Assembly: GCA_964187785.1 (NCBI GenBank)
Contig: OZ076409.1
Coordinates: forward strand, 67,892,001-67,956,000
DNA: 64,000 nucleotides
From: Amphiscolops sp. MND2022
Taxonomy: Eukaryota
Direction: 5' to 3'
In this document: one piece after another, positions 10,946 through 42,790 of the stretch
How the letters are laid out: every line of letters begins with the position of its first letter
Numbering within the stretch: position 1 is the stretch's first letter
Made by a program: the position numbers and the translations under genes
The notes under the pieces: model-generated
Databases searched by the model: none
Seen by the model: the letters and a program-made list of their open reading frames with translations, nothing else
What the model was told of the DNA's origin: nothing

Positions 10946-12204
10946 TGATCATATATGGACCTATTGATTAAAATGATCCGAACCAATTTTTTTTCAAACA
11001 GTTCATTATGTTGTTAAAAAGATTTTCCCGTTGTTGTATTTTACAGCTTTACTAAGAAGAGAAACAAAGAGAGATAAAATACAAGCTTTTTCTTTACTAC
11101 TATCTCACATACAAAATCGTATGTCAAAAGAATGTATGTAAAACAAGTTCTTTTGAGTTTTTGGTAATCAACTCGAAAGAGATTGTAGACTGTAGACAAT
11201 GGTTACGAACCGAAACTCGCTTCCGTTTCTCGCTTCTAGTAGCGGTCAGGAGATGGATGAACTGAAACGGCGAGCTGTCATAGGTCGTTTAACGCGTTAA
11301 CAGAGATGGAGAAACCTGCAGTAATGAGTGTATCGCTCAAGACAAGCGCGCCTCGCCACAGATCCATTTTGAATCCAGGGGTAAGAAATGTCCCGAGGCC
11401 GTGGGTGCTTCGAGAATACGGTCCAACCGGTTCTAGTTTTTGATTGCTAATAGTAACGTACTTCTTTTATTTGGGTTTGCGGGTCGTACTGTCATAATGT
11501 TCCTTGAGGGGATAGTGCATTACCTTGTTCGACTAGTCTTTGAATTTCCGGACTGTTGTGACGGCAACGAAAAATACACATGGACATTTCACGGATGTTC
11601 CCCAGTGACAAAAAAGTATTCTTGTCCATGGTTTTTTACACTTTCAACTTTTGTCGGCTGGTTTTTAGAGTGCTAAAATTGGACTGCCCGAATGTAGTTA
11701 TTTCGTTCTGTTCGGATTTTTTCACGTTGTTTTACTTCTCGATAATCTACTCGTTTGTGTTTCATTCTTTTTGTACTCAGTTCACGTTTCGGTGATGTCA
11801 TTGTTTGTCTCGGTTTTCCTTCTGTTTCGTTGTAATTGGTCGGCAAATAATATTCCGTATTTCGAGTTCAATTCGGCGTGTTCAGATAATATGGTACTTA
11901 CGGATTTTTATTCGTAATTTTTATGCGGTATGGCTCTCCTAACAGATTTCTACCGATATAATTGGTAATTTTCCAATTACTGCCTGACATATTGACGGTA
12001 TTTAGATGTCAAAACGTGTTAGTGGGTCTAACCATCTTGTTGATGTTGCGCTATTTTAGTTATTCCATCAGTTCTGTTTAATTAGTGGTTTTATTGATTA
12101 GTGTTTCGTGTAGAGAAACACTTTCTTTCCGTATAGGCAAAATAGGGTTTTCGCTAGTCTCCACACTGCCGCTTGTTATTCTTCTTCACCAATGGAACAA
12201 TTTT

Positions 12205-12381
12205 ACTCGGCATAACGTTGTGGTCGAAACAAGAGGCCGGAAATGTAAAACTGATAGCATACGGCGGCAGATATTTGAACGAAACCGAAAAGGCTTTTCG
12301 GTTTCGTTCAAATATCTGCTGCCGTATGCTATCAGTTTTACATTTCCGGCATCTTGTTTCGACCACAACGTTATGCCGAGT
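12205..12381. repeat. 177-bp near-perfect palindrome (88-bp arms, 1-nt centre, 2 mismatches)
   Basis: ACTCGGCATAACG...CCGAAAAG-G-CTTTTCGG...CGTTATGCCGAGT, centred on 12293. Confidence 0.95.
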
Positions 12382-12997
12382 CAAGTTCAACTAGCGTCTG
12401 TTGTTTTTATGATATTCTTGTCCTTCGCATCGATTACTACTTAGGTGCTACATATACTCCAAATGATGGTATAATTCATGGCTGGTGGTTGAATATTGCA
12501 GATACAAATCTTTCTTTCACCAGTTTCGGGGATTCTCACCAAAGAAATTTTTGAGAAAAATGTGTTTATACAGAAACTTTCTGAAGTAACACATTTTTCC
12601 AGGATTTTTCCCAACAAATTTGGGGTTTCTTGGGGGTTGAATTTAGTGAGAAGCGTTTTTCGAGTCTTTAGAATAACTAACCTCTTTAGTTATTTTTTGC
12701 TACTGTGGGACTGATTGGAGTTTTGTCGATAAATGTGGAAAGACCTACGTCAACATGTGCAACCTCTACTACGATTTTTTTTCTCTGAAGGTTTGCTATT
12801 TCATTTTTTGTTATTTTATTTCTTCAAAAAAGGATCACACTGTTGTGTATCTTTTGCACTGTGAGACTTTCTTCGAATGAAATTTATTTGGGAAATATTG
12901 TAAAAATTATCGGCTGCGTTTTCCCAGGAAAGCGCCGACTAAAAACATGTTTACCATACAACAACGTTCTGTCTATTGTATTGTATAACTAAACCTA

Positions 12998-14525
12998 TGT
13001 GATAATCCTCGTCTAGGCTCTCTGCATCAGACTCTTCGTCTGAATGGATAGTTACGTCTACATCAGATTCAGCTCGAAACAAAGGCTTTGCAGGATGTTT
13101 TAGATCCTTCATTCTAGATGCCTTAAGAGGAAAATCTTCGTCTTCAGTTTCTGAATTTTCATTGTTAGATGCGTGTACTCCTATAGACTTGTTTCCTTTG
13201 GATCCCGTAGGTTGCATGTTTCGTGTTTCATCATTTTCAGACCTTGGGTTTGTTGCTATTGAAGCACTTTTATTTGATTCTATTTCTCTGAGAATGGTTT
13301 CAAGTTTGTTGTCCATTTCTTCTCTCATTTTCTCTATTCTATCGTTGTTCTTTTGTTCAAATATTTGGGTCCAAGCTTGAATCTCAGTGCTGATTTGACT
13401 GGGTTCGACTAATTGTTCTCCTATGTTGTTTTCACCTAAATTTTCTTGGACAACAGTATCAGGATTAGTTAAAGTTATATTACCTGTATTTGGCGTTTCT
13501 ACTTGGGTCCTTTCTACACTTCTCTCTGGGGAAGGAGTTTCTAGTCTCCTGGACCGTCTATTTCGTCTATTTCCCATCTCGTCTCAAGTGAAAATGTTTT
13601 CTGGCTTTTGGGGAAGAATTTGAATTGACTTTAATATCTCAAAAGAACAAGATCGGAGAGTTTACAGTGATGAAATCGAAGAGGTTTACAATCATTTGAA
13701 AAGCAACTGCTTTTGGTGAAAGACAAATCTTGAATGAATTCTTCCAATTATTTTACAAAACGAAATATATTTAAAAATCATGACACCCCTTTTTATTAGA
13801 GTCATCATGAAAACCAGCACAAAAATAGAATTGCGTCAAATGACATCATATTATAAAATAGCACATTTACATTACATCATGGGAAGTGGTTATGGACAAG
13901 AAACTGCAAAACCCTGGAAAATATCTCAAAATAACTTCTAAATATGGCCGAAACACTTTCTAAATGCTATTAGAACGCGTCCTGGGATCTTTCAATAATT
14001 CCTGCGAGAACCGCATAATGACGTATAATCGTTCTTACTCGAACCGTAGGATGCCGCATAATGTTATCATAAAAGACGTATAATGCCGTATATACATCTC
14101 ACCTCAAAACGCATAATACCGCATAATGGTATTATCAAAACCGTATAGTGACGAGTATACGTCACACCTTGATCCGCATAATACCGTATAATAGTACTAT
14201 GCTAAAATGCAGATTATCACGATGATGATGATGATGAGTCAGAAACTTGCAAGTTATACTATTAGATGGCGAGATAACTCATTGTTTAATCAACATAAGG
14301 ACTCTTAATGGGAAGACAGGGTTTGTTAGCACAACAATGAAAGTTCTTTCATGGCAAATATAGTATAAATATCATATTTACATGACTTTCTAAAGAAAAC
14401 AATGCACAAGAAAACACACTATCAACGGGTCCACATGAGTTCGAAAGAGTTTATTTAGGAGGTACCGTTGCTTGTTCCTTTCTAGAGTTGCACCACGGAG
14501 CCATCACATCTTGGTGGGTGTGACA
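12998..14525 (-). repeat. 3' LTR (1528 bp) of the large element
   Basis: Direct repeat of 27646-29168; by eye it differs by about 4 substitutions, one 6-bp indel and one 1-bp indel. Confidence 0.95.
14011..14190. repeat. ~32-bp-period CCGCATAnTGnCGyATA array in the LTR (second copy at ~28654-28833)
   Basis: About 6 degenerate units, e.g. CCGCATAATGACGTATA, CGTATAATGCCGTATA, CCGCATAATACCGTATA. Confidence 0.85.
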
Positions 14526-15510
14526 GTCCCGCATTTTTAAAAAGGAACAATGCTGCCTCGGAGCCGTGGATAAAGGCTTTCGACCTGATGGCTCTCTCCT
14601 TGACAGTTTCACCGTCGTACTCCGTGGCGACCAGATATTGTCCAAGCGTCTCTAATGCTATTTGATCGAAACATTTCCCACAGAAATCACAATGCCCTGC
14701 CACATTTGGCATGACCGTTGGTAGTAGTCTTATGCCTTGTCTTTCTTGGGCTGGTATTAACAAGACGTTTGGGCTATGTACCATGTCGAATGGGAATCCT
14801 AGCTGCATGGGTTGTTGCACGACGAACGGTGTTTGGCGGGAACCCTGTGTTGTCTCCTCCAACGGGATTGGGAATAACATTGGGGACAAGTTGAATCCTT
14901 GCATGGTCCTCATGACTGGTTGTTGTGACTGGGCTACATTGCTATGTATTTCGTAGTCCATAGGGTCATTTATGAGCATGCTTTGCATATTCGTTTGGCC
15001 AAGTTCTCTACTGGGCTCCTGTGTAACCATTGGGGTTGGCAAGATTCCTTCTTCGTCTTGATCTTCTCGCACAATAGGTAACACTCTGGCACATGGTCGG
15101 CCATAACTATTTGTATTTAGGGCTGCATCCCTATTTTCTGTCCATGGGAACAGGTTTCCTTCTTCAAATTCACTGTCGATGAACGACGATGGAGAGCCTG
15201 CAGGGTCGTCTTGAGAGTCGTTCATCAACTCTATAAGGTCTTGCTCTATTTGGGTTCCTTCCACACATGCAGCATCACCGTGCCCCGCTAGTACGTTTGA
15301 ACTGGGAAACAGTGTCGCTAATGAAGATCCAACAAATGCTGACATCAGATTGTTTTCTGCCGGATTTACTCTGAATTTCTCTCCCAATTGCGATATGTTT
15401 CCTGGGGCAACTGAGAAGGTTTCTTCTGTCTCGCTGGAGATATCGATGACATCGGGAGATAGAGGAGAGTAAAGGCTATCTTCATCGAAATTGAACTGAA
15501 GCTTGTCCAT
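14482..15510 (-). CDS. Accessory ORF (~342 aa) in the env position; acidic, low complexity, with a C-terminal HCDFCGKC motif; function unknown
   Basis: Uninterrupted ORF from ATG 15510 (MDKLQFNF) on the same strand as gag-pol; the stop lies about 44 nt inside the 3' LTR; no signal peptide or TM segment is visible. Confidence 0.75.
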   Translation of the reverse strand: MDKLQFNFDEDSLYSPLSPDVIDISSETEETFSVAPGNISQLGEKFRVNPAENNLMSAFVGSSLATLFPSSNVLAGHGDAACVEGTQIEQDLIELMNDSQDDPAGSPSSFIDSEFEEGNLFPWTENRDAALNTNSYGRPCARVLPIVREDQDEEGILPTPMVTQEPSRELGQTNMQSMLINDPMDYEIHSNVAQSQQPVMRTMQGFNLSPMLFPIPLEETTQGSRQTPFVVQQPMQLGFPFDMVHSPNVLLIPAQERQGIRLLPTVMPNVAGHCDFCGKCFDQIALETLGQYLVATEYDGETVKERAIRSKAFIHGSEAALFLFKNAGLSHPPRCDGSVVQL

Positions 15511-16331
15511 TTTTTCAAAATTATTCAAGTTAAAATTAATGGGAGAATTATTTTAAGTATCAAGTTATCAGTTTGTGAAAGGCAGCCGAATTTCAGATTG
15601 ATTAAGACCATATGGTGGTTGATTTTCTTCTCCCTTCTGTTTTTGACAAAATCCCGCGGAAAAGTTGAGAGTCATGCTTTTTCGAGTCCTCCGTTCCCCT
15701 TATAAGGGCTTTACTAGGAGTCATGTCATGAGACTCACTTGCAATAACTCATAAACAATTTCCATAAAAGGTGTTTTACTTAACACATCATCGGATTGCC
15801 GCTCATCACTTGGATTTCCGACAATTTCCAGACAGTTAAATGATATATAAACAAAATTCAAGGGACATCAAAGTAAGTAAATGCCTCCATGAAGATATTT
15901 ATTGAAAAGTTGGGAGAAAAACTTTATCTAATCTTACATGACTAATTTTATGAAATGATGAAAAGAGTTATGAAGCATGTTTCACTTTTGATTAATAGCA
16001 CAGCTAAATCGACCATTAATTCCAAGAAAAACATGTGTTAAACTTGGTCGCGCATTTGAAAAATGCGTGTGGGGTGATGGTTTGACGTATAATTTCCGGT
16101 TCTGACAATTGTTTCTTTTTTATAAGCTCCCGGAACATTATCAGTTCGAAATTTACTAAATGAACTAAATTCAACATAAAGCTGACGTTGTGATTAAGCA
16201 TCAACAATATCACACGTGTTTATCATTGAGAGTGTTTAATTTTCTTCATAATATTACGTAATACTTCTTTATATGTTCAATTCCAGCCACGAACTGCATT
16301 AATTCATCCTATTAAGAATATGCAGCGAGAA

Positions 16332-16575
16332 CCGCAGGATGACGAGTATACGTCACTGCAGGAACCGCATATTGCCGCATAGTCTTCCTTTGCATTCCGC
16401 ATACTGCCGCATACTCTTCTCTTGCAATCCGCATATTGCCGCATATTCTTCTCTTGTACTCCGCATACTGCCGCATGCTCGTCTTTGCTCGATCCGCATA
16501 CTGCCGCATATTCTTCTTCTGCAACCCGCATACTACCGCATATTCTGCGTTTGCAATCCGCATATTGCCGTATAC
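16332..16575. repeat. Tandem array of ~8 x 32-bp units with a CCGCATAyTGCCGCATA core and variable ~15-bp linkers
   Basis: Directly visible; the first unit shares GCGAGAACCGCA and GACGAGTATACGTCAC with the LTR array. Confidence 0.9.
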
Positions 16576-16599
16576 TATCAGCCAAAACAATATCTATGC

Positions 16600-16680
16600 T
16601 TAAATTAGCCATTGGCGTTATGCAATGAGTCAATCAATCACGCTGGCAGACGTGACTGACATTTAATTAGCCAATCAGAT
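16600..16680. promoter_or_regulatory. Candidate promoter elements between the divergent accessory genes (CCAAT boxes in both orientations, TGAGTCA)
   Basis: ATTGG at 16611, CCAAT at 16671, TGAGTCA at 16626, repeated AATTAGCCA. These motifs are short, so function is only inferred. Confidence 0.35.
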
Positions 16681-16965
16681 TTCAGTATCTACTTTGCATA
16701 TTTGCGCAAGTTTATACCATTTGCTTTTTGCCTTTCTTTGTTACGTTACGCCACGCCTTTTGTTTCGATTCATCGCCTTATACGAATTATCGTGTAGTTA
16801 GAGTTTTGTTAAAGTATCGACTCTGAACTTGCAATTATATTCTCCATTTCACCCTCTCATTACTCTAGAATTTGTCCCAAGTTCGTTTACAGCTTTTGCA
16901 ATTTACACTCCACTTTTCCTTTTCAATTTGCTTCTTTCTTCCTCTTACTTCCTCTTTCTGGAGAA

Positions 16966-19900
16966 ATGGATTCGCCATCCGGGGCTGAGCGATCAGGAAA
17001 ACGAAGGTCTCGTAAGGACCAAGCCCCGCTTCACCGCAGATTTGGAGGCAGAGATTACAACCCTTCCTTTTGGTCAGATCCAGGTAAATTCAACTTTTGA
17101 TTGGTTCAATCCGATTTAATTTGTTTAAAAGGTTTAGATTTTCTCGTGAAGCTGGCCAGGTTTGTCAGAGCGTGTGATCTATGTATATGATAGATCGGAT
17201 TCAGATTTTTTGAAACGTTTCCGTTTCTAGTTTGTAAGCGACTTCCGTTCTCTTCATTTCCTGTAACCGCGTCCGGTTCCGGTTGATTTAGAACAGAATA
17301 AGCTAGCTTTTGAACCACCGATTACCTTATCGTAATAAGTCCTTTGTTTCAGTTGAACCTGAAGTAGGAGAGTCATCACTGACACCTTCACCTGCGAAGA
17401 CTTACACGCCCTTACATTCCTCATCACCTAAAACTCTTTCTGCCCCTGTTGTGCAAGAATCTCCAGCTATTGTCCCACTACAAATTGATGAAGGGATCGC
17501 TGTCGTAACTGAACCAGAGCTACCATTAACTACCATCGCTCCGACTACTCTACAGGATCCACAAAAGACTCTAGAGGCGGAAGAAAACACTGCTGATCAG
17601 GACAATCCAAGCTTAAACGAAACTCCCACTGGAATGATGGAAAATAACGAAGCTGACTTAGGCCGGGAATTGCTGGAAGAATTTATTTCTCCCAGATCTA
17701 GTCAGGTAGCCTCACCCCTTCTTAATCAATTCCTCGCTACGGCCACTAATGAAAGTCTAAGCCAATTCATCAGAGCTGACTTTAACCTGGCTCAGGCTAG
17801 TGAGCGACTTAACACTCAACCTCCTGAACAAATGGAAATTCCCTCGACCGAGGCCTCTCAACCTGCGTGCACTCGGGCCAGCATCAGTGTCACCAGACGA
17901 GAAATTCTGACCATCAGTAGCTTCCTGGAACGAATTCCGCAAGGGTACGTGACAAGGGAAAGAGGCGATTGTGATCAACCGTTGACACTTATGGTTGGTG
18001 ATGCGACAAATTCTGCCCCTATCACTGCAACATCAAGCCAAGAAGAAGCAGGAACGAGTGCGCTAACTGGAGTACCTGCCTTGGAATTACAAGAAGAAAA
18101 CATGGTTAGAAGTGGAAAACGTCGTAGGCCAAAATATTCCTTGACCAGCGCGATGTTCAAAAAACATCCAGTGATAAAGTTTTCAGCGACCGGCCCGCTC
18201 GATAAGGACAAGACCCCTCACAAGTGGTGGTGCAGGGTGTGTAAAGTTGAACTGTCTCTCATGAGTCGGGGGAGTTTGGAATTAGTATCTCATTATCGCA
18301 CCGAATCTCATTTACTGAAGGAACACCGAATGAGGATGGAAATAGCGGGATTAGCCTTGTATGACAAGAACGAAAAAGAGCTTTTGGGGGTGGCACTTCA
18401 GGATGCCAAGAAAAAGGCCAAAGACATGTACCCCATTGCTCCACAATTAGATGTCTGCCGACCTCTCGTAGGACAAGATGTTGTACCTGATTTCAGCGCG
18501 GTAAAAAGTCCTACAGAGAAAATTTTGTCCCAAATAACTGTTCTCGAGCATGGATTGAGATATGGTGGGCATATCAACAGTTTGACATCAATGTACGATG
18601 AGCTAGCTCGGATTGCCAGTAGCAGTCACATGACAACACAAAACTGGAGCCCTCAGCGACTTTTCGTTAGTGATTTCTTGCTGTTTCTTTTATTGCTGGT
18701 CAATTTAAGAGTCTGATATTTTTTCTTTCTGGAACTAATTTTGAGTCTGAAACTATATATTTCACGTTTGAGCCTTAAGACTAACAAGTTTGTTTATTTC
18801 ACAGGCTATCCTTGTACACATGTTTCGGGAGCTAATCAGCTACTGCGTCACTGCGATCGCCTCTTCGGGGTTTTATTCCTTGCGTTGCAGCAGACTCATA
18901 CAGCGTCTTTCCTCATCCTCAGCTTCTGGTCTGGGAACGTGTTCCATAGAGTCTGTTTGGGTTGTGCTCCCCGCGGAATGCTGCTACCCATGAAGATTCT
19001 CAGTTTAACGTCATCTTTTCTCAGCCTCTTTGAGACGGAGTCAACTTGTCTGTCACTTGTTGACTTGGGTGACAAATTGGGCGATTGCCTATCTACTTGT
19101 CTTCCCGGGAAACAGCCACCGACAGTTGTCAAGACGTATGGACCTGATGAGTTCGAGAAAAGTCTCTCCCTTCCAACCTCACAGATTATAGAGCGCCATG
19201 ACTACAGAGCTATCTTGGATTATCTGCTGATGAAACTACGTACAGCACTTGACAAAGATTGGCTGCAACAAATCCCCGTGTTGCACAAAGTAAAATACTT
19301 ACTTGTGATTCACTCCTAGGGTTCTGTATACTTTCGTTTACTTTTATTGTTTCTGTTTCAGTGTGTAGTTCGTTTGGAATACTCCCTTGAAGATGCCTCC
19401 GCCATTATCGAGCATCTTTCAAATAATTGGAACCACGTTCGTGATCATCTAAATCACGTATCACGACTCCCTGTATACCGGTTTCATATGCGCGAGGTTA
19501 TTGTCTTTCCCATATTCACTATCTCCTCTTTAAATTCACCGTATCTTTTGTTCATTTCATTCTTTCATTTCAGCCGAACACTTTAGATGAGTGTTTTCGT
19601 CTCGACACAACGTATCTAGCACGTCTCTTCGTGATTCGTTGTGTCCTTGATCACTGTTAGTTATTTCCTTTTCTCAGTTTACAATTAATTTTGCTTCCGG
19701 CCAAAAATCAGAAATCTTAAGCTCGGTTATATATCAATGCGTTCTAATGGATTTCTCATGGGAGTCTCTGTGAAAATACGAGACCAAAGCTCATCTTTGG
19801 TAAAATTGTTACATCTTTTGTACTTCTATCACAGTTTTCTTTTGATTCGTATCTGCACTCATTCTAGTTTGTGAGTGAAAATAAGCCGCCTTCTACTTTA

Positions 19901-21434
19901 TTTCTGTGTTGCAGCAGTCTCTGCATAAACCGCATAATGACGTATAGTCCATCCAGCGATTCCGCATAATGACGTATTGTCCATCTAGCAATTCCGCATA
20001 ATGACGTATAGTCCATCTAGCAATTCCGCATAGTGACGTATAGTCCATCTAGCAATTCCGCATAGTGACGTATAGTCATCACACCTCGAACCGCATAATG
20101 CCGTATAATCTGCTTAGTAGTTTCGTACACTGCCGTTTAGACGTTGCAGCCTGTTCCGTAGAATGACGTATAATTAGTTCCGCTTGTTCATGTTTATTTC
20201 TTTGAATCTCGTACGTATTATTTGACACGTGTTATGTATCACATCTAGTAGTTCAGACTGTCCTTCAATTATGTTGTTTCTGACTTAATATTGTACTTAT
20301 CAAGAATTTTAATTTATTGTGTTTTAGATAACTCGGCCTTTTCGGAAGTTCGCAAAGGAGTGGAAGGAGGGTTTCGTGCCTTCAACCAATTTGCTGTATT
20401 CATTTACAGTCAACTCCAAAGCATTTTACCAGATGAAACTCTTGGAAACATCTCTGACTGGGACAACTTCTTGCAACTGGATCTCACTCAGGACAGCCTG
20501 CCGTTCAAAACTGCGGACGAATATGTATTGAATGAAGACTTCTACCGATTAGTTTCAGCAAGTAAACTGCCTCGGCCGAGCAAATTTGTGAACCAATCAA
20601 TTTGCTTCAGTAAAACCTTTTGCAAGTCACTGATGGGGCATGAAAACATCAAATCCAAATTGATGAGAGGGTTATCAGCTTTTGATCCTGCTGTGATGCT
20701 CGATGGTACCGAGGCTAATTATACAGTTGCTATCGAGGATCTTTCTAGTCATTTTGCTTCTATTGGATTGATTTCTTCTAGCGATCGAGTAAAAATGGTC
20801 AGCCAGTACCGAGCACTTGTTACGAAATTCCGCTCAGGGACTGGATTGGAATATGATGACTGGATACATTTCATCTCTTCGCATCACGAGTTACAGTGTC
20901 GGCCTGAGCTCTTTCTTTTGTACAAATTTGCTTGTTTGTGTTTGCCCCCACTAGTAGAGATGCCTACTGAATTTGTAGTCCCAATGCCAGCTTTAGGATC
21001 CAATGAGGAGACCTTCCAATCTTGTGTAAAAAGTTTGCAAATGTCATATTCCACTATCCCACATGTGTCTAGCTTATACCGGGACCCAAGATCTGTTAGT
21101 CGAGTTTTTCGTTTGTTGGGGCGTGGTTCTGATTTATTAACAGACAAGAAGTTTTCGGTATGGAACTTCTTTAAAGGAAGTGGACCCCGAAGAGCCTCCA
21201 TGCTGGGAAAACTGGAAATTGATATCGGAAGGCTGTTTACGCCATGAAAAACCGGTGGTTTCCTCGAACACTACTACCCCAAGTGTCAGTCGCACTAGTA
21301 GTGTTAATAGTACTCCGTCCCCGGACCCAGCTTTGAGCAGAGTCAGTGTCCCTGTCAGTCGCTGTACTGGATCGTCTCTTGAAAGTGATCAACCGAAGGC
21401 GAAACCCAATTCCGGCAAAGGCAAAAAACATTGA
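16966..21434 (+). CDS. Spliced antisense cargo gene, ~1100 aa, hAT-transposase-derived Zn-finger protein. Exons ~16966-17083, 17353-18665, 18805-19289, 19362-19496, 19574-19655, 19722-19799 (tentative), 20328-21434. This copy has apparent frameshifts and a stop.
   Basis: GT-AG introns with matching phases. Zn finger WWCRVCKVELSLMSRGSLELVSHYRTESH (BED-like type found in hAT transposases). IASSGFYSL sits where hATs have FSxxxDE. The C-terminal GLSAFDP...W...PELFLLYKFACLCLP resembles the hAT dimerisation region. Apparent 1-nt frameshifts near 18878 and ~21220-21240, and a TAA at 19745. Confidence 0.7.
19930..20172. repeat. Third array of the same 32-bp repeat family (CCGCATArTGACGTATAGTCCATCTAGCAATT), inside the last cargo-gene intron
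   Basis: About 5 near-identical units plus 3 degenerate ones. Confidence 0.9.
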
Positions 21435-21660
21435 TTGTCTGTTGTAGTTATCAATTGCTATGTTTTCTTTTGTTGTGTTTACTTTATGTTGATACATCCA
21501 GTGTATTTATTTGGATGATTCTTGGTGTATTATTGCTACAAAAACGAGAAACAAACTCATGCACTGAGGTGCACTTCAAAAATAGAAGATAAGAGGAGAA
21601 TTTCTTTGCAGTTCTTTTTATTATTATAGGTAAGGAGAGTCAGAGTATAGAAGTTGTCTT

Positions 21661-24600
21661 TTAGTATCTGTATGTGTCAGAGTAGTTTGGGTTAGGATTT
21701 GGGCGCAAGTTGTATTTTTCACCACGAGTCTTTATGGGTTCTTCTTGCAATGGGGTATTTTCAGGAATTTCTGGGGTTCTTTGGATATCAATTTCAGGTG
21801 TGATATTTCTGTCTTTTTGGGTTTTTTGTGGGTAATCTGTCACATGATCACGGGTTTCTTGTGTATTTCCATTGCTCGTTTCTCTTTCAGGTTCAGTGGT
21901 CTGTTCCACTGGGCTCCCCCGCTATTTTTTGAAGATCCAGGGGAGGGAGGGCGGTTATCATCAGGTGTTTGAATCGGGATGTATTCGGTATCGTCATTAT
22001 TCTGTGAATATTCTACTGGATCATCGTCAAACGGGCTAGATCCAAAATTCGTGTTCCACGATTGGGCATATAGGTCATCATTTGCTATTGGGATTTGATC
22101 ATCTTTTTGCCAATCGGTTTCTCGGACAAAAATGTCTGCTAAGGGCGCTTGCGGAGTAAATTTGCGCAAACGAATCCTGTGAAGTAGTTGTGTTTTGTTA
22201 GTCCCTAGTCTCCTGACAATATAATTATTGTTGGGGAGGACTTTTTCAACTTTATAAGGACCACACCACCTAAATTCTCGGAACGGTATTTTTGTCGCCT
22301 GAGTGTCAGCCTTGGGATTCAGAATGTAACAATAATCCGTCGTTTCGAGCGGTGCTGCTTTCGCTTTGCGGTCATAGTAGGCTTTGTATTTAAGGTAGGG
22401 TTGCATGATGTTCTTCTTGGTTTGGTCTAGAAGTATTTTCATGCGTTTTTGAATTTCCTCTGCTATGTCAGTTTGCGGTGGGTATCTTGGATTGGGATTA
22501 TATCCAAGTTTATAGTCAAGAATATTATGTGGTATCCGTCCATGGAAAACTCGTGAGGGTTCGCAACCTAGTGACGCATGGTATGTCGTGTTGTGATTAA
22601 GGACTGCAAGAGGAAGATATTTATGCCAGTTGTTCCTAAATTCGCCTGTCGCGGCTTTTAGGTGTGTTTTTACTGAGGCATGTGTTCTTTCTAGGAGTCC
22701 TATTGTTTGTGCATGTTTCATTGTAGCGTGTTTCAGTTCTATTCCGAGTACTGCTGCAATTTCATGGGTTATTTGTGCATTGAATTGTGTGCCCAGATCC
22801 GTGATTATAGTTGTTGGGAGATAAGTGTGTTTGCATAATATATCCATAATGACTTTCGATACTGCTGTCGCAGTGATGCGATTCACAGGATAGGCAAACA
22901 AGTATCTTGAGAAGACATCTATTGCCGTGATGATATGATCGTAGCCTCCACTGGGGGGAAGGTTGGGCAAAATGTCCATCTGCAGGATGTCTTCCGGTCC
23001 AAGATCCCATTCTGGACAATTAAGGAGTTCGGTTCTGAGGAGGTCATTGTTAATGCGTTTTGTTTGGATGCAAACTTGGCAGTTACTAACCCATTTCTTG
23101 ATGTATTTAGCCATACATGGGTAGTAATATTTTTGGCGTGCTTCTTGAATCATCTTGGTGATTCCTGGATGGTTTGAGTTATGGCCATGCAGGGCCTGAA
23201 GTAGTTCCTGGAGAAGTTGTATTGGTAGGAGGATTTGGTAATGAGAGATAATTCCTGTGTCTGTATAGTATTTTCGTGTGAGAACTTCCTGTTTAATCTC
23301 GATTCTGGTAATGTTTTGTAGATAATGTTGGTATCTGTAATCAGATGCCAATTCATTTTCGTCAAAAGGGTTACCTTCAATTTTTGCTCTGAGATGTCTA
23401 AGAACTACGTCATTGTTTTGTTCAAGGCGAATTCTTGCGTTGTCCTTGAAGTATCCAGAAGAACAGGAGATTAGTCCCGATGTGGGCCTGTGAAATTGTT
23501 GGAGTTCAGAGATGTTATTCTCTGGTTCATTGTGGGTTTCTGTTTGTGCCTGGTTTCGTATGTTTTGTTTTTCCTGCCATAATTGATTTTCATCAATTTC
23601 ATCTTCAGGGAGAATATAGATTTGCTCTTCCTCGGCGATTCCAGATGACTGGATATTTACCTCAATTGCTTTCGTGTGAATGTCATTGCGAATTGTTAAT
23701 TCTAGTTTTTCTGTTGGGGCGACTTCTGTCCTTGATAGGAAGTCTGCAGCAGTATTCATTGAGCCAGCGACATGGGCAATTACAAAATTGTATTGTAAAA
23801 CGTAATCGCATGCGTTCCAAAGTGCTGGTGGGATCATTTTCGTTTGAAAAAACCGGGTTACTGACCGGTTGTCAGTGAACACGATGACTGGGAATTTGCT
23901 TCCCCACATGAGGTGTCCAAATTCGACGAATGCAAAATATATAGAAAGGAATTCTTTCGCATAAATTGACATCTTCGTCTGTGTTGGGTTGAAAGTTTTT
24001 GAACCAAACGCTATGGGTGCATATGTTTTGCGTCTGGATTGGAGTTTTTGATTCGGATCGTCTTCGATCATGATAGCGTATCCTGCTGCAGTGAAACTTG
24101 CATCGGACATGACTATGAGTTGTTTGTTCTTCAATGGTTGTTTCAAAGCTAATTGGCAAGAGATTTCCAAAAGTTTGTTAAGGTTTGTGAATTCTTCTAC
24201 CAAGTTTGTTGGTACATAGAATTTGGAAGTTTCTTTGAGGAGTTTGAAGAACGGGGATAGCCGTTCTGAAAGGCGTGGTATATAGTTTCGGTAATAGTTT
24301 AGGAATCCAATATACCTTTGTAGTGCCTTCTTCGATTTTGGAAATGTGAGTTTTGCGAGGAAATCTTTTACTTTGTCGGCCTGAGGGGCAACTCCATCTG
24401 GTGTGATGGTGCGACCCAGGAAATCGACTTGTTTAACTCCAAAATGACATTTGGACATGGAAAGTTTTAATCCAGCGTTTCTGATACATTCAAAGACGGT
24501 TTTGATGTTGATGTACAATTGTTTTGTGTCGTTTGCTGCAATGCCAATGTCATCAACATATTGGGCACATTGGTCAGCTTTGATTGCTCTGTCCAGGTAT

Positions 24601-26543
24601 TCCCTCATGAAGCTTGAGAATGCAGAAAGGGATCGGCTGAGGCCCTGAGCAAGGCGACGATAAGCAAATGTTCTGCTTGCGAAATTGAAAGCAAGCATCT
24701 GGATAGATTGGTAATCTGCCATTTGAAGGCAGTGGTAAGCTTGAGAGCAGTCCAATTTGCAGAAAAGTTTTTTCCCTGCCATGTGTTGGGCTGCATCGGA
24801 TAATGTGCTTACCGGGTGGTTATTGTTGACATAATCTTCAGTGATGAGATTATTAATTTTCCGGAGGTCTACAAGGAGCCTAAGGCGCCCATTAGGTTTG
24901 CGCTGTGCAAAAATTGGGCTTGCTTATTTGGAAAATGGTAAGGTTGTTATTATACCATATTTATGTAGGAGCGCAAGTTCTACTGTGATGTCATCTTTGA
25001 GGTTAATGGGAGTCGGTAAACTTTGACTATAAGCTGGTCTGTCGTCATTTGGCGTTAATTTCACTTTGAACTCGCGGTTGATCCCTATATCAAAGCGATG
25101 TCTGGCGAAAATGTCGTGGAATTCGACCAGGATCTCTTCAATCTCTTGTCGTTCTTCTGAACTAAGTGTTGTATCTGTCCAGTCGAAATTTGAGAGGAAT
25201 GTTTTCCTGGATGTTTCATTATCATGTGGGTTCAGTTTTTCGAGTTCTTTTAACTCAAGGAGTTCGTTGTATATACGTTGTTGTATTGGAGTATATGTTG
25301 CGGGATCGCCTGGGTCTTCCGGGGTAGGAAACCAGTACGATTCTTGTTCAGAATTTGGTTGTGGTACTTTGAGGAGTTCGTTGATGTACACTTCCGTAGT
25401 TTCCTCTTGTTGTATCATGAAAGATAGTACTGGTGGGTCTACGGGTTGGATGTGTTTGATTTGTTCGGGGGTGAGAATTTTAAAGTCCGCTAGATGGGTG
25501 TCAAGGGTTATTGTATATGGCAATTCCGAAAAATTGATGATTTGATACCCGATAGCAATATTATTGACTGTGCTGAGTGATGCCGTAATAATAATACTAT
25601 CATGGTTTTCGAATTGTTGTGATGGGGTAACTATTCCGGTTGCATTATGATCCATCAAATGTGGCATTTTACTTACTATGACGAGTGTTTCACCTGGTCT
25701 TAGAGTATAGGTATTTTCTGCAAATAATGGTGTTGCTTGCCGTATTGCTGGTTGTGTGTCGGGTTTGAGTTGCATTGAGAGATAAGGAAACGTTAAGATT
25801 CCTTGTGTGACATCAAATATGGCATTGTTTCTACGAAGGAAACATAATCCGATTAAGGGGTTTGGTAGGTTTTTCATAATGATGAAGTTTTCTTTTAACA
25901 TGAAGTCTGCGACTTCGAATTCTAGTAATACTGTACCAATGGGGACTTCTAGTTGTCCATTTGCCACCATAATTTGGAAGTTTGGTGGAGGACCGGTTTC
26001 TTTAATTGCTTCATTTGCGAGCAGCTTGATTTTGTTGAGGTCTTGTTCGGAGATTGCACTTGTGAGAGCTCCAGTATCGATAAGACCATCAAGTGTCAGT
26101 TTTTCGAAGTCCATCGGTATGTAGTACATGTGTCGTTTTCGCTTCAATGTCAAAGAAGTTGAAATTGGGAGAAATGACACGTTTCGTTCTTTGTCAAATT
26201 GTATGTGTTCGGTGAGGTCTTCACTTAATAGAGGTTGTTTTTTATCATCGCAAGAAGTGTTTATGGTGACATAATTTTTAACGGGGGAATTGTGGTGAAT
26301 ATCGGGTTTTGAGTCAATTTCGGGGTGGGTTTGTTGTTTGATGAAGTAGTTGTCCGGTGAATCACGGAGGAGTTCGTCTTCAGTGTGGTAGTCGGTCAAT
26401 GATTGTTGAGAAGTTTCTGTTATCAGGTCTTTTTGGACGAGTGTTGCTTTTGTGGGTTTTGGGCTCAACTGATGCTGCCAGTCATCAGATGAGTTTGGTT
26501 TTTGTGGAGATTTTTTGTAAAGGCGTGGCGTTTCTAGTTTAAA
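21661..26543 (-). CDS. pol: pol (protease, dUTPase-like insert, RT, RNase H, integrase) with an in-frame TAA at 24924-24926 and a 1-nt frameshift near 21915
   Basis: LIDTGA protease; TTLPFSK*ASPIFAQRKPNGRLRLLVDLRKIN reads through the stop in frame; YVDD; RNase H SDAS...KE...TDN; integrase H-H-CQVC, QMD...TDLG...LLER, GPY motif. Confidence 0.92.
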
Positions 26544-28219
26544 TCCTTCGATGAGGATTGTTGAGATCGTTCTGATTTTGGTCTGATTGGTTTTTTGGCT
26601 TGTTTGTATTCTTCTATAATTTTCTTTTGTGCTTCTGTCAGGTTCCATTTCGGTGGGCGGTTTTCCATATTGGCTCCGAAGTAACAGTTTTCCTCATCGT
26701 GACCAGGTGTGTTACAGGTGTGGCATTTTTCCGCATCGGGGTCTTCCTCAAGTTTGCGCCGTTTAGCTAATTTGGAGCAGTCAGCCATCATGTGGCCTGT
26801 TTCCTTGCAGTAACGGCATTGATCATTCTTGAGGGTTTTGTCTGGTACTGTTTTTGGTGTTTGTTTTTTGGCTTTGTCATTTGGTTTTTTGTTAGTTTTT
26901 TCAGTGATTTGTTCTTTTTTTGTAACAGTCATTTGGGTTTTGACGAGAGGTTCGTCAGCCTCTAGACCATTAAGCTCCATTTCTCGTTCGAGATGCTCAA
27001 CAATTTGTTCGTAAGTGCCATTTTCAAGATAGGCTTGATTGATGAACTTTTTAAGATGGGGAGGCATTTTTGCGTAGAGTAGGTTCTCTATCATTTGGTG
27101 GGCGTTCTCCCCAAACGCTTTTTCAGCACTTTCTGGGAGTTCTTCTAAGAAATCCGGGAGTTTTTGGTGTTCTGGGTCAAATGAGAGTCTGTTGAATCTG
27201 TGTTTTGCAGAAGCACTGGACTCTGGTTTGACATATTTCCTGCGAAAGACTTTGAGTATGTCTTCTAGGGTTGTTGTTGGTGTCCTTTGTATGTTTTTAA
27301 ATGTTTTGAGGGCTAAACCTCTGAGGTGGGCATGAAAATGGTTAATCTTCATGTCCTCTGTTAGGTTTGGTTGCATTCGAAGTGTTGTGTGAAACAAGTC
27401 TTCGAAGTATTCGAATTTTTCATTTTTCTCATTTTTTCCATTGAAGGTGAGTGTATTTTTGGGATGAAATAGTGATGGTTGTGAATTTTTGTTCGCCAAT
27501 TTCTCTATTGCAATTGCAATTTGATTCACTGGGTCAGGTGGTTGTGTTGTCAAATTTGGTAAATTGAGGTCTGCGTGGGATCCAATGGTGTCGTTTGATT
27601 TTTGAGAACTTTGTCTATGGAGTTTTCGGTTGGCTCCTGTCACCATGTGATAATCTAGGCTCTCTGCATCAGACTCTTCGTCTGAATGGATAGTTACGTC
27701 TACATCAGATTCAGCTCGAAACAAAGGCTTTGCAGGATGTTTTAGATCCTTTATTCTAGATGCCTTAAGAGGAAAATCTTCGTCTTCAGTTTCTGAATTT
27801 TCATTGTTAGATGCGTGTACTCCTATAGACTTGTTTCCTTTGGATCCCGTAGGTTGCATGTTTCGTGTTTCATCATTTTCAGACCTTGGGTTTGTTGCTA
27901 TTGAAGCACTTTTATTTGATTTTATTTCTCTGAGAATGGTTTCAAGTTTGTTGTCCATTTCTTCTCTCATTTTCTCTATTCTATCGTTGTTCTTTTGTTC
28001 AAATATTTGGGTCCAAGCTTGAATCTCAGTGCTGATTTGACTGGGTTCGACTAATTGTTCTCCTATGTTGTTTTCACCTAAATTTTCTTGGACAACAGTA
28101 TCAGGATTAGTTAAAGTTATATTACCTGTATTTGGCGTTTCTACTTGGGTCCTTTCTACACTTCTCTCTGGGGAAGGAGTTTCTAGTCTCCTGGACCGTC
28201 TATTTCGTCTATTTCCCAT
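26534..28219 (-). CDS. gag: gag (561 aa) with two CCHC knuckles; starts inside the 5' LTR
   Basis: CRYCKETGHMMADC and CHTCNTPGHDEENC; capsid-like core FNGKNEKNEKFEYFEDLF; overlaps the pol frame. Confidence 0.9.
   Translation of the reverse strand: MGNRRNRRSRRLETPSPERSVERTQVETPNTGNITLTNPDTVVQENLGENNIGEQLVEPSQISTEIQAWTQIFEQKNNDRIEKMREEMDNKLETILREIKSNKSASIATNPRSENDETRNMQPTGSKGNKSIGVHASNNENSETEDEDFPLKASRIKDLKHPAKPLFRAESDVDVTIHSDEESDAESLDYHMVTGANRKLHRQSSQKSNDTIGSHADLNLPNLTTQPPDPVNQIAIAIEKLANKNSQPSLFHPKNTLTFNGKNEKNEKFEYFEDLFHTTLRMQPNLTEDMKINHFHAHLRGLALKTFKNIQRTPTTTLEDILKVFRRKYVKPESSASAKHRFNRLSFDPEHQKLPDFLEELPESAEKAFGENAHQMIENLLYAKMPPHLKKFINQAYLENGTYEQIVEHLEREMELNGLEADEPLVKTQMTVTKKEQITEKTNKKPNDKAKKQTPKTVPDKTLKNDQCRYCKETGHMMADCSKLAKRRKLEEDPDAEKCHTCNTPGHDEENCYFGANMENRPPKWNLTEAQKKIIEEYKQAKKPIRPKSERSQQSSSKDLN
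26537..26543 (-). other. -1 ribosomal frameshift slippery site U UUA AAC
   Basis: gag ends GAT TTA AAC TAG; pol continues in the -1 frame (GGA TTT AAA CTA GAA). Confidence 0.8.
27634..27645 (-). promoter_or_regulatory. Primer-binding site TGGTGACAGGAG (tRNA-Leu-like), within the gag coding sequence
   Basis: Directly abuts the CA end of the 5' LTR and begins with TGG; one mismatch from TGGTGTCAGGAG, the complement of a metazoan tRNA-Leu 3' end. Confidence 0.75.
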
Positions 28220-29168
28220 CTCGTCTCAAGTGAAAATGTTTTCTGGCTTTTGGGGAAGAATTTGAATTGACTTTAATATCTCAAAAGAACAAGATCGGAG
28301 AGTTTACAGTGATGAAATCGAAGAGGTTTACAATCATTTGAAAAGCAACTGCTTTTGGTGAAAGACAAATCTTGAATGAATTCTTCCAATTATTTTACAA
28401 AACGAAATATATTTAAAAATCATGACACCCCTTTTTATTAGAGTCATCATGAAAACCAGCACAAAAATAGAATTGCGTCAAATGACATCATATTATAAAA
28501 ATAGCACATTTACATGACATCATGGGAAGTGGTTATGGACAAGAAATTGCAAAACCCTGGAAAATATCTCAAAATAACTTCTAAATATGGCCGAAACACT
28601 TTCTAAATGCTATTAGAACGCGTCCTGGGATCTTTCAATAATTCCTGCGAGAACCGCATAATGACGTATAATCGTTCTTACTCGAACCGTAGGATGCCGC
28701 ATAATGTTATCATAAAAGACGTATAATGCCGTATATACATCTCACCTCAAAACGCATAATACCGCATAATGGTATTATCAAAACCGTATAGTGACGAGTA
28801 TACGTCACACCTTGATCCGCATAATACCGTATAATAGTACTATGCTAAAATGCAGATTATCACGATGATGATGATGATGAGTCAGAAACTTGCAAGTTAT
28901 ACTATTAGATGGCGAGATAACTCATTGTTTAATCAACATAAGGACTCTTAATGGGAAGACAGGGTTTGTTAGCACAACAATGAAAGTTCTTTCATGGCAA
29001 ATATAGTATAAATATCATATTTACATGACTTTCTAAAGAAAACAATGCACAAGAAAACACACTATCAACGGGTCCACATGAGTTCGAAAGAGTTTATTTA
29101 GGAGGTACCGTTGCTTGTTCCTTTCTAGAGTTGCACCACGGAGCCATCACATCTTGGTGGGTGTGACA
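27646..29168 (-). repeat. 5' LTR (1523 bp) of the large element
   Basis: Direct repeat of 12998-14525; flanked by the PBS internally and the TSD externally. Confidence 0.95.
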
Positions 29169-29909
29169 ACCTATTTCACCTACCACTACATATAACTTTT
29201 CATGATCTGTATGTTTTTCGTATCCAGGTCAACCCGGAAATTTTTTAATTTTTCCACGTTGTCCAATCTGTGCAAAAACACCGAAAAACATTCTCCCTAC
29301 TCAAATACAGCAGAATAAATACGGATCTATTTGAAATAGTTGTTTAGCTACATCAAAACTTTAAGATCGAAAGGAGTTCCTAAAACGTTCAAATATCGAC
29401 AATCGATGGTTTTCGCTACTTCATATCATGAATGTCATGTAAAGGTTTAGAATGGAACACTGTGTCAAGGATGTTCGTTCGACGTACTCTACCATGACAT
29501 ACATATTACACTTTCCGAAAATATTACTTTTTGTATTTTTTAAAACTCACTAAAGAAACTGGCTTTTCATTCCGTTTGGCATTTCTTGCAACTTATCCCG
29601 ATACTCTTTGCAGACCTTGCAATAGTTCGCAATGATAGATTCGATCATTCCTATCTGATTTTGAATGGCTTCTTATCCAGGTTTAGAAGTTTTTTTACGT
29701 GTTCCTTTGATTGTAAAATCTAAGGCACGCCTAGCTTCAAAACTTCCCTGCTCATAAATGGTATTTCGATGCCCAGCTCGAAAAACAATGCATATCTTTT
29801 ATAAAGGAGACGCACCTCATTACGCAATAAATCACGAGGCAAAAAAAACAATTAAAAATAGATTAGATTCTTTAAAAATAACTACGTAAGGTTAAAAAAT
29901 AAAACTGAT

Positions 29910-32900
29910 TCATCTTTCCATTTCTAAGTCTTCCACACTCAGTGGTGGTGGGGGATTCGCAAATTGTCGCAATAACATGGTCATATTATCTTCAAGTCGT
30001 TGACCCCTGTCGTCTATTTGAGATACTAGTGAAATTACTTGAGCAAATGATTGAGTCAACTGCTCGAACCGATTTTCCAGTGCTTCCATTCGATCTGTAA
30101 CATCAAAAAAACTGATACTATTACCAAAAGCAGAAATTTTTTATCATGATTCCAAACAAGACGCCCGCTGAGGAGCGGGATATTTTCCGCCCCGAACTGT
30201 TCTACAACTACATAAATTTGAGGCTCAAGAATAACTAATGCACTATAAAAACGCTGAGAAGTTCGAAGAAAAGAAAGCTTCGATTCATCTTGTCCATTTT
30301 TCTAATTCGCGGTGTCTCAAAAAATGGCAAAAATTGCATAAAAATGTTTAAAAATGAGAAATTTGGGAATTTTTGTCATTTTCGGGGTCATTTTGTCATT
30401 AAGGGGTCATTTTGTCATTAAGGGGTCATTTTCGTCATTTTCGTCATTTTTTAAAAAAACTTCAAAAATCTCTACAAATACATATCGCACGAAGCTAAAT
30501 TTATGTGGGTTGAATTCTATGGGTAACACCCTTAAATTTAAATATAAATAAAATCTTGGCAAATTTTGTAAAAAAAAAAACCCGTTTGATTTAAATATTT
30601 TCCTTTCCCATATGAAATATGGGCGGAAAATAATAAACACATTTGAATAGTTTTCTCAGCCGTTTAAATACTGATCATCTTGAAAATAAGCGAGTTTCTT
30701 CATCAGTCTTCGATTATTTCTAAGGTAAAAAAATTGTTCGGCAATTGGCTTTTGAAGCAAAATAGAAGGTTAGAGTTCGATTAGTTTGATACGTACTTAT
30801 GACGCTCCCGTTCTCTTCTCGGATTCCAGTGAGCTCTCGTTCCATTAGCTGTTTCGACTCCTCGTAAAAGTCTTTTGAAGTACTCGAAGCGTTCTTCTGG
30901 TCCGTTAAGTTAAGTCTAATATCCATCAATTCACCTAAACAAAATTTAGAAATTTTTTTCGCTTGAAGATCAGATTCCCAAATCAAGGATCTTAAGTTAT
31001 CATGAACCAAAAAGACTCCCAAATGATCCTTATTTTTTTTGGTCACGAAGTATCGCGAAAATAAGAAAATGCAGAACTCCATTCATTATAGATTAAGAAG
31101 ATGAAGTTCGAAACAATGGGCAAATTTCAAACAGTTCGAGATTTTTCTCAGAGACAGTTTTACAGAAACTTTGACATACGGACCTTGGATCTGAGATGCA
31201 GTTCGGTCGATAGTCACTGATTTTCCTTCGATCTTTCTCACTCTCTCTTCAATGTTTTCTTGCAGCCTCCTATCAGTCAAACTAGCATACTCTTTGGCCC
31301 TAAAAACGATTGCCTTTGAAACATTTCTTGCAGTACGTTGTTCAAAAATTCTATTGATTTTCAAACCTGATTAGACACAAATAATAATAGAATTTGGAAT
31401 ACTAAAATCAAATTTAAAAAAATCCGATTATATAGTATATGCAGCTGAATGTCTCACATTTCTTAGAGCTCCGGTTTTGGCAATTACCAAGAAAAAACAT
31501 AAAATATTCTCCAGCCTCACCGGATATCTTCCCATTTCTCCAACTTTTTCGCGTCTTTCGGCTCTTCGGTGAGTCGTTTCATTTTGGGAGTCTCTCTTCG
31601 CTTCAGCATATTTCCGAATGTGTACAAGTGAGAGAAGATGATGAACGGGGGAGGCAACCACGGTCTAAAATTTGGACTGTTTCATCAATCCAGGATACGA
31701 AAAAAAAACATTTTCAATTTCTGAAAAAAATTCCCCAAGTTTGCTTAGTTTTTATTTTTTCTGGGTTCACTATATAGTTTTACTTTTTTAAAAAAGATTC
31801 CAGTGTTGTAGAGGGATGTATTTTGTTCCGGAGCGAAAATGATCTCGCCATCCCGACTGACCGGGTTCATTATTGCCACGGGGACTACCCATGACTGAAT
31901 ATGGAATAATTTTCTTTATTTGAGGCGCGAAAATTTCCGCATTTACGCATAATAACGCTTTTTTAGTTATAAATGCTTGAAATGTTTCACTTTTATAGTT
32001 TACAGCGTAATATTTCATAATAATTTAGAACTTCATAACACAGTACGATCACAAAATTGGCACTATGTTTGGCTGAGATGATTTTCTGTACTTGCGACGA
32101 GTTTTGCCCGCAGAATTTCCGGTAATTTGCTTTTCGACAAGTTTTCCACCTTGTATTTTGGAACAGTTGTTTTTGACGAGTTTTCCTATACTCCTATCCC
32201 ATACAGTCAGTATACGCAACCAATTAGTAGATGAAACGAAAGTGTGTCACATTTGGTTTTGTTGGGAAAATCGCGATAACGCAAAATTTAGAACCTCCCA
32301 TATGGACCTGTCTTTTCCAGGAAAATTTTCAGAAATATTTAAGAATTCATAAAGTTCATTTCGAAACGACTCAAGAGTTCATTTTAGCTGTCTTGAAGAT
32401 TTTGCATGATTTCAAGGCGACTGAAACACAACATTTCGAGGAAAAATTGTGCATCTTTTAAGAGGGAATTCACTTTACGTATTTGGCTTTATGAACATTG
32501 ATTGCGATGAGCGAAATAGCTTTTTACACCATTTCCTTTGGTCCATTTTTTTTTCATTTCGTTCTCTGTCAAAAGATATCAACCAAATTTACCCAGTAAC
32601 ATGGTATGAACTGCAGACTCTCGTCTGAATTACAAAATCGTTTTTTGAAGTAACTTGCAGGTACTAGTTGATAATCACGATGTTTGCGAAGCATGAAACT
32701 ACGGTTGTTTGCATTCCTGGTACAAAACTTTCACAAAAACCAACCTGTTATAGAATTCTTTGATGACTTCAAAAACTTGAAATTTCCAGTAAATATTGGC
32801 TTGCTCGTTGACGGCATCATATCGGTTGTTGAAGATGGCGATCAACAGATTCAGAAGCAGAACATTCGTGAACAACATGTATAGTGCCTTTAGTACCACC

Positions 32901-42590: not shown

Positions 42591-42790
42591 NNNNNNNNNN
42601 NNNNNNNNNNNNNNNNNNNNNNNNNNNNNNNNNNNNNNNNNNNNNNNNNNNNNNNNNNNNNNNNNNNNNNNNNNNNNNNNNNNNNNNNNNNNNNNNNNNN
42701 NNNNNNNNNNNNNNNNNNNNNNNNNNNNNNNNNNNNNNNNNNNNNNNNNNNNNNNNNNNNNNNNNNNNNNNNNNNNNNNNNNNNNNNNNN
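42591..42790. other. Assembly gap (200 N)
   Basis: Run of N; the sequence just after it (42791-42850) is repeated at ~43106-43165. Confidence 1.

Follow-up and report, generated by a model that had tools for sequence, protein, structure and literature searches.

What is a spliced gene doing in reverse orientation inside a retrotransposon, and why does it face a second gene across a region that carries the same repeats as the long terminal repeats (LTRs)? This question is raised by a 16.2 kb Ty3/Gypsy element (12998-29168, with gag-pol on the minus strand) in a 64,000-nucleotide stretch of the Amphiscolops sp. MND2022 assembly GCA_964187785.1 (contig OZ076409.1, positions 67,892,001 to 67,956,000), hereafter the window. 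A preliminary description of this DNA had proposed that the block between pol and the 3' LTR is an integrated regulatory or anti-silencing module and not random cargo. We find that independent insertions and diverged subfamilies alike retain the block, that it evolves under purifying selection and that it has neither terminal inverted repeats (TIRs) nor a target-site duplication (TSD) of its own, all of which bears out its integrated nature. A regulatory role is plausible by inference, but anti-silencing through DNA methylation found no support. The parts of the element that identify it are as follows.

12993 to 12997, no strand: left TSD, ACCTA
12998 to 14525, minus strand: 3' LTR, containing a truncated second copy of the 5' end of gag and the final ~44 nt of the sense accessory open reading frame (ORF)
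21700 to 26693, minus strand: pol (protease, reverse transcriptase (RT), RNase H, integrase), with an in-frame stop at 24924-24926
26534 to 28219, minus strand: gag (capsid-like, CCHC), whose frame crosses the primer-binding site (PBS)
27628 to 27645, minus strand: PBS, which begins TGG and immediately adjoins the 5' LTR
27646 to 29168, minus strand: 5' LTR, with its own repeat-array copy at 28655-28839
29169 to 29173, no strand: right TSD, ACCTA

As first described, the two LTRs are near-identical (99.3%; 1518 matches, 4 substitutions and 3 gaps), and the same 5-bp TSD is found on both sides. The Pfam domains run capsid-like, CCHC, protease, RT, RNase H, integrase, which is the Gypsy order, and the closest solved relative of gag-pol is Ty3 Gag-Pol (E 1.7e-48). 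With its LTRs, TG..CA ends, short TSD, PBS and gag-protease-RT-RNase H-integrase order, the element is a Ty3/Gypsy LTR retrotransposon. The gag frame starts at offset 950 of the 1523-bp LTR and has its first ~190 codons inside the 5' LTR; these LTR-encoded codons are under selection, with a ratio of non-synonymous to synonymous substitution rates (dN/dS) of 0.18-0.27 in seven of eight comparisons and 0.67 in the other. A TTTAAAC heptamer lies immediately upstream of the gag stop. No membrane-anchored third ORF of the errantivirus-like (env-bearing) kind was found: the Pfam scan returned no env family, and maximum 19-residue hydropathy was 0.9-1.5 in the four segments tested. The window copy is defective: pol has the stop, and the antisense gene is frameshifted at three points (near 18878, 21221 and 21236), none of them seen in any of 13 other copies; these lesions are either mutations or assembly errors.

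Between pol and the 3' LTR we recovered the spliced antisense gene and divergent sense ORF of the preliminary description:

14485 to 15510, minus strand: sense accessory ORF, intronless, 342 aa
15511 to 16965, no strand: divergent intergenic region, 75-99% conserved among subfamilies up to the GCCACGCC box at 16750, where similarity ends
16966 to 21434, plus strand: six-exon gene in antisense orientation, encoding ~1080 aa in most other copies
16966-17083, 17353-18665, 18805-19289, 19362-19496, 19574-19655 and 20328-21434, plus strand: its predicted exons 1-6
18225 to 18330, plus strand: BED-like zinc finger of the form CxxC..H..H, with a basic KRRRPK stretch ahead of it
20328 to 21217, plus strand: exon-6 helical domain, which resembles the insertion-domain and C-terminal region of hAT transposases

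The sense ORF does enter the LTR, as had been stated. Splicing of the antisense gene was predicted from DNA alone; across 14 copies, all 70 of the predicted introns have GT donors and 68 have AG acceptors. In a retroelement, introns can last only if they lie on the antisense strand: reverse orientation spares the five introns of the antisense gene during copying through RNA, whereas the sense ORF has none. Within intron 1, a non-coding block at 17199-17278 is conserved (~65-85%) in subfamilies whose flanking sequence no longer aligns. In some subfamilies (loci L061:145-2343 and L062:69-2051) intron 2 keeps the frame without a stop, so that open frames of 732 and 660 aa run across exons 2-3.

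When 14526-21700 of the window was searched against the same genome at the DNA level, 13 further full-length matches at 96-99% were returned, plus partial matches. Both ends were retrieved for ten of these copies: eight have perfect 5-bp TSDs that are mutually distinct, one TSD matches at four of five positions, and one copy has its far LTR outside the fetched stretch. Independent insertions thus keep both genes, which is the check that the preliminary description had suggested. The predicted spliced antisense frame is open in 9 of the 13 copies (two with one non-canonical mapped acceptor), the sense ORF in 11, and all three array sites described below are kept in every one. Eight complete LTR pairs differ by 0-15 substitutions each, and the family is recently active. 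A block bounded by its own TIRs would have told against an integrated module; the longest inverted words shared by the block ends are 9-11 nt, and no TIRs were identified around it. Two loci, L020 and L029, have other internal deletions, and at L046 the TSD matches but the 5' LTR region is rearranged and partly missing.

The arrangement also extends to diverged relatives. At five of five diverged subfamily loci, exons 2, 3, 4 and 6 occur in order at ~55-75% protein identity, pol converges downstream of the antisense gene, and the intron-5 array is kept. Protein searches of the genome gave 6355, 5024 and 4773 first-look candidates, of which 132, 118 and 150 were scored; these figures are not copy numbers. 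A divergent sense ORF lies 4.4-7.2 kb from 83 of 132 exon-6 matches (among 233 listed sense positions, after one duplicate fragment row was dropped), where chance would give 0.05; of the rest, two are arranged otherwise and 47 lack a partner among the matches listed. More distant antisense-gene families are also present in this genome. One very distant exon-6-domain family (the P0256 matches) has many open frames of near-identical length (~445-450 aa), and some exon-6 matches form repeated series, at ~3.6-kb spacing in G000:C3:32523358-32531387 and ~3.3-kb spacing in G000:C6:9975779-9979949, which suggests tandem duplication of part of the antisense gene.

Both genes of the proposed two-gene module are kept in the diverged subfamilies, but they do not form one rigid unit, since the two halves reassort between subfamilies. 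Four copies are 96-98% identical to the window up to 16759 and divergent beyond, with exon 6 at 64-68% where checked, and in five of five subfamilies examined similarity ends just past the conserved GCCACGCC box. The window integrase likewise has a dS of ~1.1 against copies whose accessory block has a dS of 0.05-0.14.

Computing dN/dS for each gene, as had been suggested, gave values of 0.05-0.15 for the conserved domains. Within the family, the antisense gene scores 0.07-0.09 in the finger half of exon 2, 0.15 in exon 3 and 0.06-0.07 in exon 6. For the sense ORF the ratio is 0.30-0.54 within the family and 0.15-0.26 against subfamilies at ~80% identity, falling to 0.05-0.07 in its C-terminal domain; an integrase control gave 0.02-0.06. 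Synonymous divergence is mostly saturated between subfamilies. These comparisons show that the conserved domains of both accessory genes are under purifying selection.

We next consider what the antisense protein is. Its layout comprises an acidic low-complexity N-terminus, a basic stretch, the CxxC..H..H finger, a mixed exon-3 region and the helical exon-6 domain. Of 30 ESM Atlas feature neighbours of the exon-6 domain, 24 fall in the PF05699 Dimer_Tnp_hAT set with scores of 0.93-0.94; nine of the best ten share a family or clan, and the top match has no common family. An AlphaFold2 model of this domain, built from 51 sequences with a predicted local distance difference test score (pLDDT) of 83.5, aligns collinearly with residues 368-609 of the Hermes transposase over 169 aa (Z 4.8, root-mean-square deviation 10.1), Hermes being rank 3 of 48161 chains and the longest alignment among the matches listed. 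The finger aligns, weakly, on the BED finger of this genome's own hATs (P 0.03-0.09). With landmarks assigned by eye, 173 residues separate the finger from the first strand, against 136-153 in five of those hATs, and 354 separate the second strand from CLP, against 297-358. The overall pattern appears to resemble a widespread non-Ac hAT subgroup. We regard descent of the antisense protein from a hAT transposase as probable, at odds of about three to one.

The catalytic acids of hAT transposases appear to be absent. In seven of seven copies the inferred first strand ends in a glutamine, so that the first catalytic position, as inferred by eye, holds no acid, and no conserved acidic residue follows CLP in the 51-row alignment (positions again by eye). 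Because neither an intact DDE triad nor TIRs with an 8-bp TSD around the gene were found, we do not class it as a hAT transposase; it is probably a catalytically dead derivative of one.

The sense protein is acidic and disordered, and carries a novel H-C-C-C domain. Residues 1-130 hold 25 D/E against 4 K/R together with conserved aromatic residues, and the C-terminal domain is predicted to form a helical hairpin in which H245 (48 of 52 rows), C274 (49), C277 (49) and C335 (45) are near-invariant, the exceptions being mostly gaps; this suggests that the four residues form one zinc site. There are 98 relatives at 32-93% identity, many of which retain a length of 340-352 aa. The Pfam scan gave no known family for the protein and no transmembrane segment was predicted; its structure model is unreliable (pLDDT 41) and its ESM Atlas matches score below 0.8. 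The 98 sense-ORF relatives and the 150 exon-6 relatives listed have no functional names in the clusters looked up, and at least some of them match this genome at 99-100%. The searches returned no long, full-length homologues, which weighs little, and scans of metagenome and viral contigs returned no relative. No RNA holder was listed either, which says nothing about expression.

The third component is the repeat family, whose arrays, besides the 5' LTR copy given above, are:

14012 to 14196, plus strand: 3' LTR array, 6 units of 32-33 bp, on the U3 side of the LTR
16330 to 16576, plus strand: intergenic array, 7 units
19930 to 20174, plus strand: intron-5 array, 8 units

The claim that one family occupies four sites holds: there are 22 occurrences of the core within the element, every one on the same strand, against a Markov expectation of 0.13 per 64 kb and a maximum of 2 in 30 simulations. 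The core consists of two CGYATA half-sites 10 bp apart, forming a 17-bp phased motif, and intervals are 32 or 33 bp in 104 of 107 cases across 18 arrays. Conservation averaged over columns is 0.85 for the core against 0.51 for the spacer, a difference that is partly circular as units were located by their core, whereas the spacing is not circular. Words shared by the internal arrays and the LTR array, put earlier at 12-16 nt, reach 12-19 nt. The LTR array lies ~330-520 bp from the LTR tip and the other two sites are internal and promoter-proximal. All arrays of the subfamilies examined have the same core, which is absent from a plain Gypsy element at 54722-60108 of the window and from the coding parts, as distinct from the ends, of five hAT loci of this genome.

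Taken together, these features are consistent with a module that encodes its own DNA-binding regulator acting on the phased repeat sites, a reading to which we give even chances on the sequence evidence. An ancestor of this Gypsy lineage would have acquired a hAT DNA-transposase gene in reverse orientation; the protein would then have lost its cutting residues while keeping its zinc finger and fold under purifying selection, and would most likely bind the repeats of its own element, as the half-sites and the 32-33-bp spacing suggest. Half-sites 10 bp apart with a 32-33-bp period would place all sites on one face of the helix, and since arrays lie in U3, the shared promoter and an intron, genomic RNA and the two accessory genes would come under the control of such a protein, presumably in trans across related copies. 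The acidic, zinc-domain sense protein would most likely be a co-regulator, which is the weakest step. BED domains of Hermes are described as binding short subterminal repeats cooperatively (PMC10368747), and transposases as sequence-specific regulators, one of which gave rise to Spm TnpA (10.64898/2026.08.24.746577). The fuller proposal, that a retrotransposon lineage took over and tamed a DNA transposase along with the repeats it binds, and coupled it to a new acidic zinc-domain partner, in a two-gene, element-encoded transcription circuit with swappable modules that acts in trans on thousands of copies, is more tentative, and we hold it at about one chance in three. If true, this circuit may underlie the abundance of the lineage in this genome, and would amount to a complex retrotransposon that arose by cross-class domestication.

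Several results pull the other way. Pfam scans of the antisense protein, including for zf-BED, gave no match, nor did hmmsearch against the PDB; with hhalign, exons 3 and 6 matched five hATs at the wrong places; and common helical arrangements reach values such as the Hermes Z of 4.8. At E<=0.001 Foldseek had no match in the PDB or BFVD, a viral 'Transposase' being sixth at E 2.0. (A second-look Foldseek alignment had no Hermes chain among the matches listed, and a DUF4371 search of the genome was blank, as were its controls.) The core includes TGACGTA, which presumably could be read by a host bZIP-type factor. The divergent-pair context is established neither for 49 of the 132 exon-6 matches nor for the most distant families. 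In three pairs a sense identity of 92-98% accompanies an exon-6 identity of 62-85%, and such free reassortment of the two halves argues against a tightly co-evolved pair. One window-family copy (L015, G000:C4:51.56 Mb) has lost the antisense gene (~16887-21519) while retaining LTR, sense ORF and promoter, and one close copy has a sense dN/dS of 2.4 (2 synonymous and 16 non-synonymous changes).

Other readings of the module were weighed against an element-encoded regulator. It might counter host silencing, by repressive chromatin or small RNA, in the manner of VANC or TnpA: an element-encoded protein with tandem repeats is the VANC layout (PMC5735166), and the families are very numerous, as the first-look candidate counts indicate, and recently active. 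However, C>T changes at CpG sites number 25 of 551 against 102 of 2640 elsewhere and the CpG observed/expected ratio is near 1 in the flanks, so that no CpG-methylation signature by depletion or hypermutability was seen; this indirect evidence makes a VANC-like anti-methylation role unlikely. The core is moreover conserved across subfamilies, whereas VANC targets differ among related elements, and the conserved domains have no sign of rapid change. We consider anti-silencing unlikely overall, and place at the same low level a post-transcriptional role for the accessory proteins, with a host factor reading the arrays or the arrays working as RNA. Export of genomic RNA would be one such role, for which CERV of Cer1 provides a precedent from an animal Gypsy element (PMC10309623). 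No DNA-binding family was detected in the sense protein and the core does hold the TGACGTA word, but phasing of 10 bp and 32-33 bp suits double-stranded DNA binding, the antisense protein combines a BED-like finger with hAT-like features, and one array is in U3.

A little less likely still is that the dead transposase binds the arrays on the DNA copy of the element and helps to synapse, protect, import or target the pre-integration complex. Arrays are present in both LTRs, and hAT transposases are described as oligomerising and bridging repeat-bearing ends (PMC10368747); set against this, the LTR array lies well in from the tip, two further arrays are internal, insertion of the window's plain Gypsy element took place without any such module, and the ten TSDs have no obvious common sequence. 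That the block is a nested DNA transposon or captured host fragment, a functionless passenger, has very little left to recommend it: the frameshifts of the window copy and the existence of deletion derivatives are what such a passenger might show, but strong purifying selection with saturated dS between subfamilies, the missing TIRs and the predominance of open frames among other copies have already largely refuted it.

The rest of the window supplies context. The plain Gypsy element at 54722-60108 has identical 206-bp LTRs, a GATAC TSD and a single 1558-aa ORF, without accessory block or repeat core. Exons of a TRPM-like channel gene with SLOG and TRPM2 domains lie at 37066-40136 on the minus strand, and a sulfotransferase-like ORF at 43478-44098. 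A 189-bp near-perfect palindrome (95%) at 12199-12387 resembles a miniature inverted-repeat transposable element, dispersed repeat families occupy 2157-2734, 30155-30636, 49933-51162 and 63354-63857, and an assembly gap, a 200-base N run at 42591-42790, is outside the Ty3/Gypsy element.

How does the module compare with known systems? The preliminary description held that Gypsy elements normally carry only gag-pol and sometimes env. In plant Gypsy elements, additional antisense ORFs together with tandem arrays have already been reported from the stretch that separates pol from the 3' LTR: Retand (Tat-lineage), and also Grande and RIRE2, are described with an extended interval from pol to the 3' LTR, conserved antisense ORFs and tandem arrays (PMC11963269, PMC7264820), and a DNA-binding regulatory role has been proposed there too. 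These accounts state the origin and function of such ORFs to be open. Unlike Retand, our Pfam scans gave no TRP28 match, and the gene here has five introns and is hAT-like, whereas the plant ORFs are described in the same two papers as having no similarity to other transposable elements. Here there is also a second, divergent sense gene, and the same repeat lies in the LTR as well. Retand repeats are described as family-specific. The host of this element, judging by the TRPM gene, is apparently an animal.

Spm TnpA and VANDAL VANC resemble the module in that an element-encoded, sequence-specific protein acts on its own element, as we propose here, and TnpA is transposase-derived (10.64898/2026.08.24.746577, PMC5735166). 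Those are DNA transposons in methylated plant genomes, as the sources present them, whereas no CpG-methylation signature was detected here, the target repeats do not differ among related elements as in VANC systems, and a retrotransposon probably carries the protein of another transposon class; the words 'LTR' and 'retrotransposon' are absent from the main text of 10.64898/2026.08.24.746577. Set beside hAT transposases (Hermes, PDB 8edg), the antisense protein has a BED-like finger, similar landmark spacing and a weak resemblance in the C-terminal fold, but unlike Hermes-type hATs it has no ERxFS motif in addition to the missing first acid, has no TIRs and is extended at its N-terminus by a long acidic stretch. 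Accessory coding capacity that is conserved and not env is likewise described for Cer1 CERV, bdelloid ORF3s (PMC5408684) and planarian Burro (PMC6431247), where, in contrast to this element, those descriptions give no transposase-derived antisense gene, divergent gene pair or phased arrays. Our literature search, in which most subscription journals, Repbase and supplements were outside the scope, found no description of an LTR retrotransposon with a hAT-derived gene or this arrangement. Transposase domestication is usually described for hosts, whereas here the domesticator would be a mobile element of another class, and this family supplies a hAT transposase as candidate origin, the 17-bp phased motif as candidate target and many natural variants. 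We conclude that the element resembles Retand in its layout and TnpA in its proposed logic, and is a member of neither.

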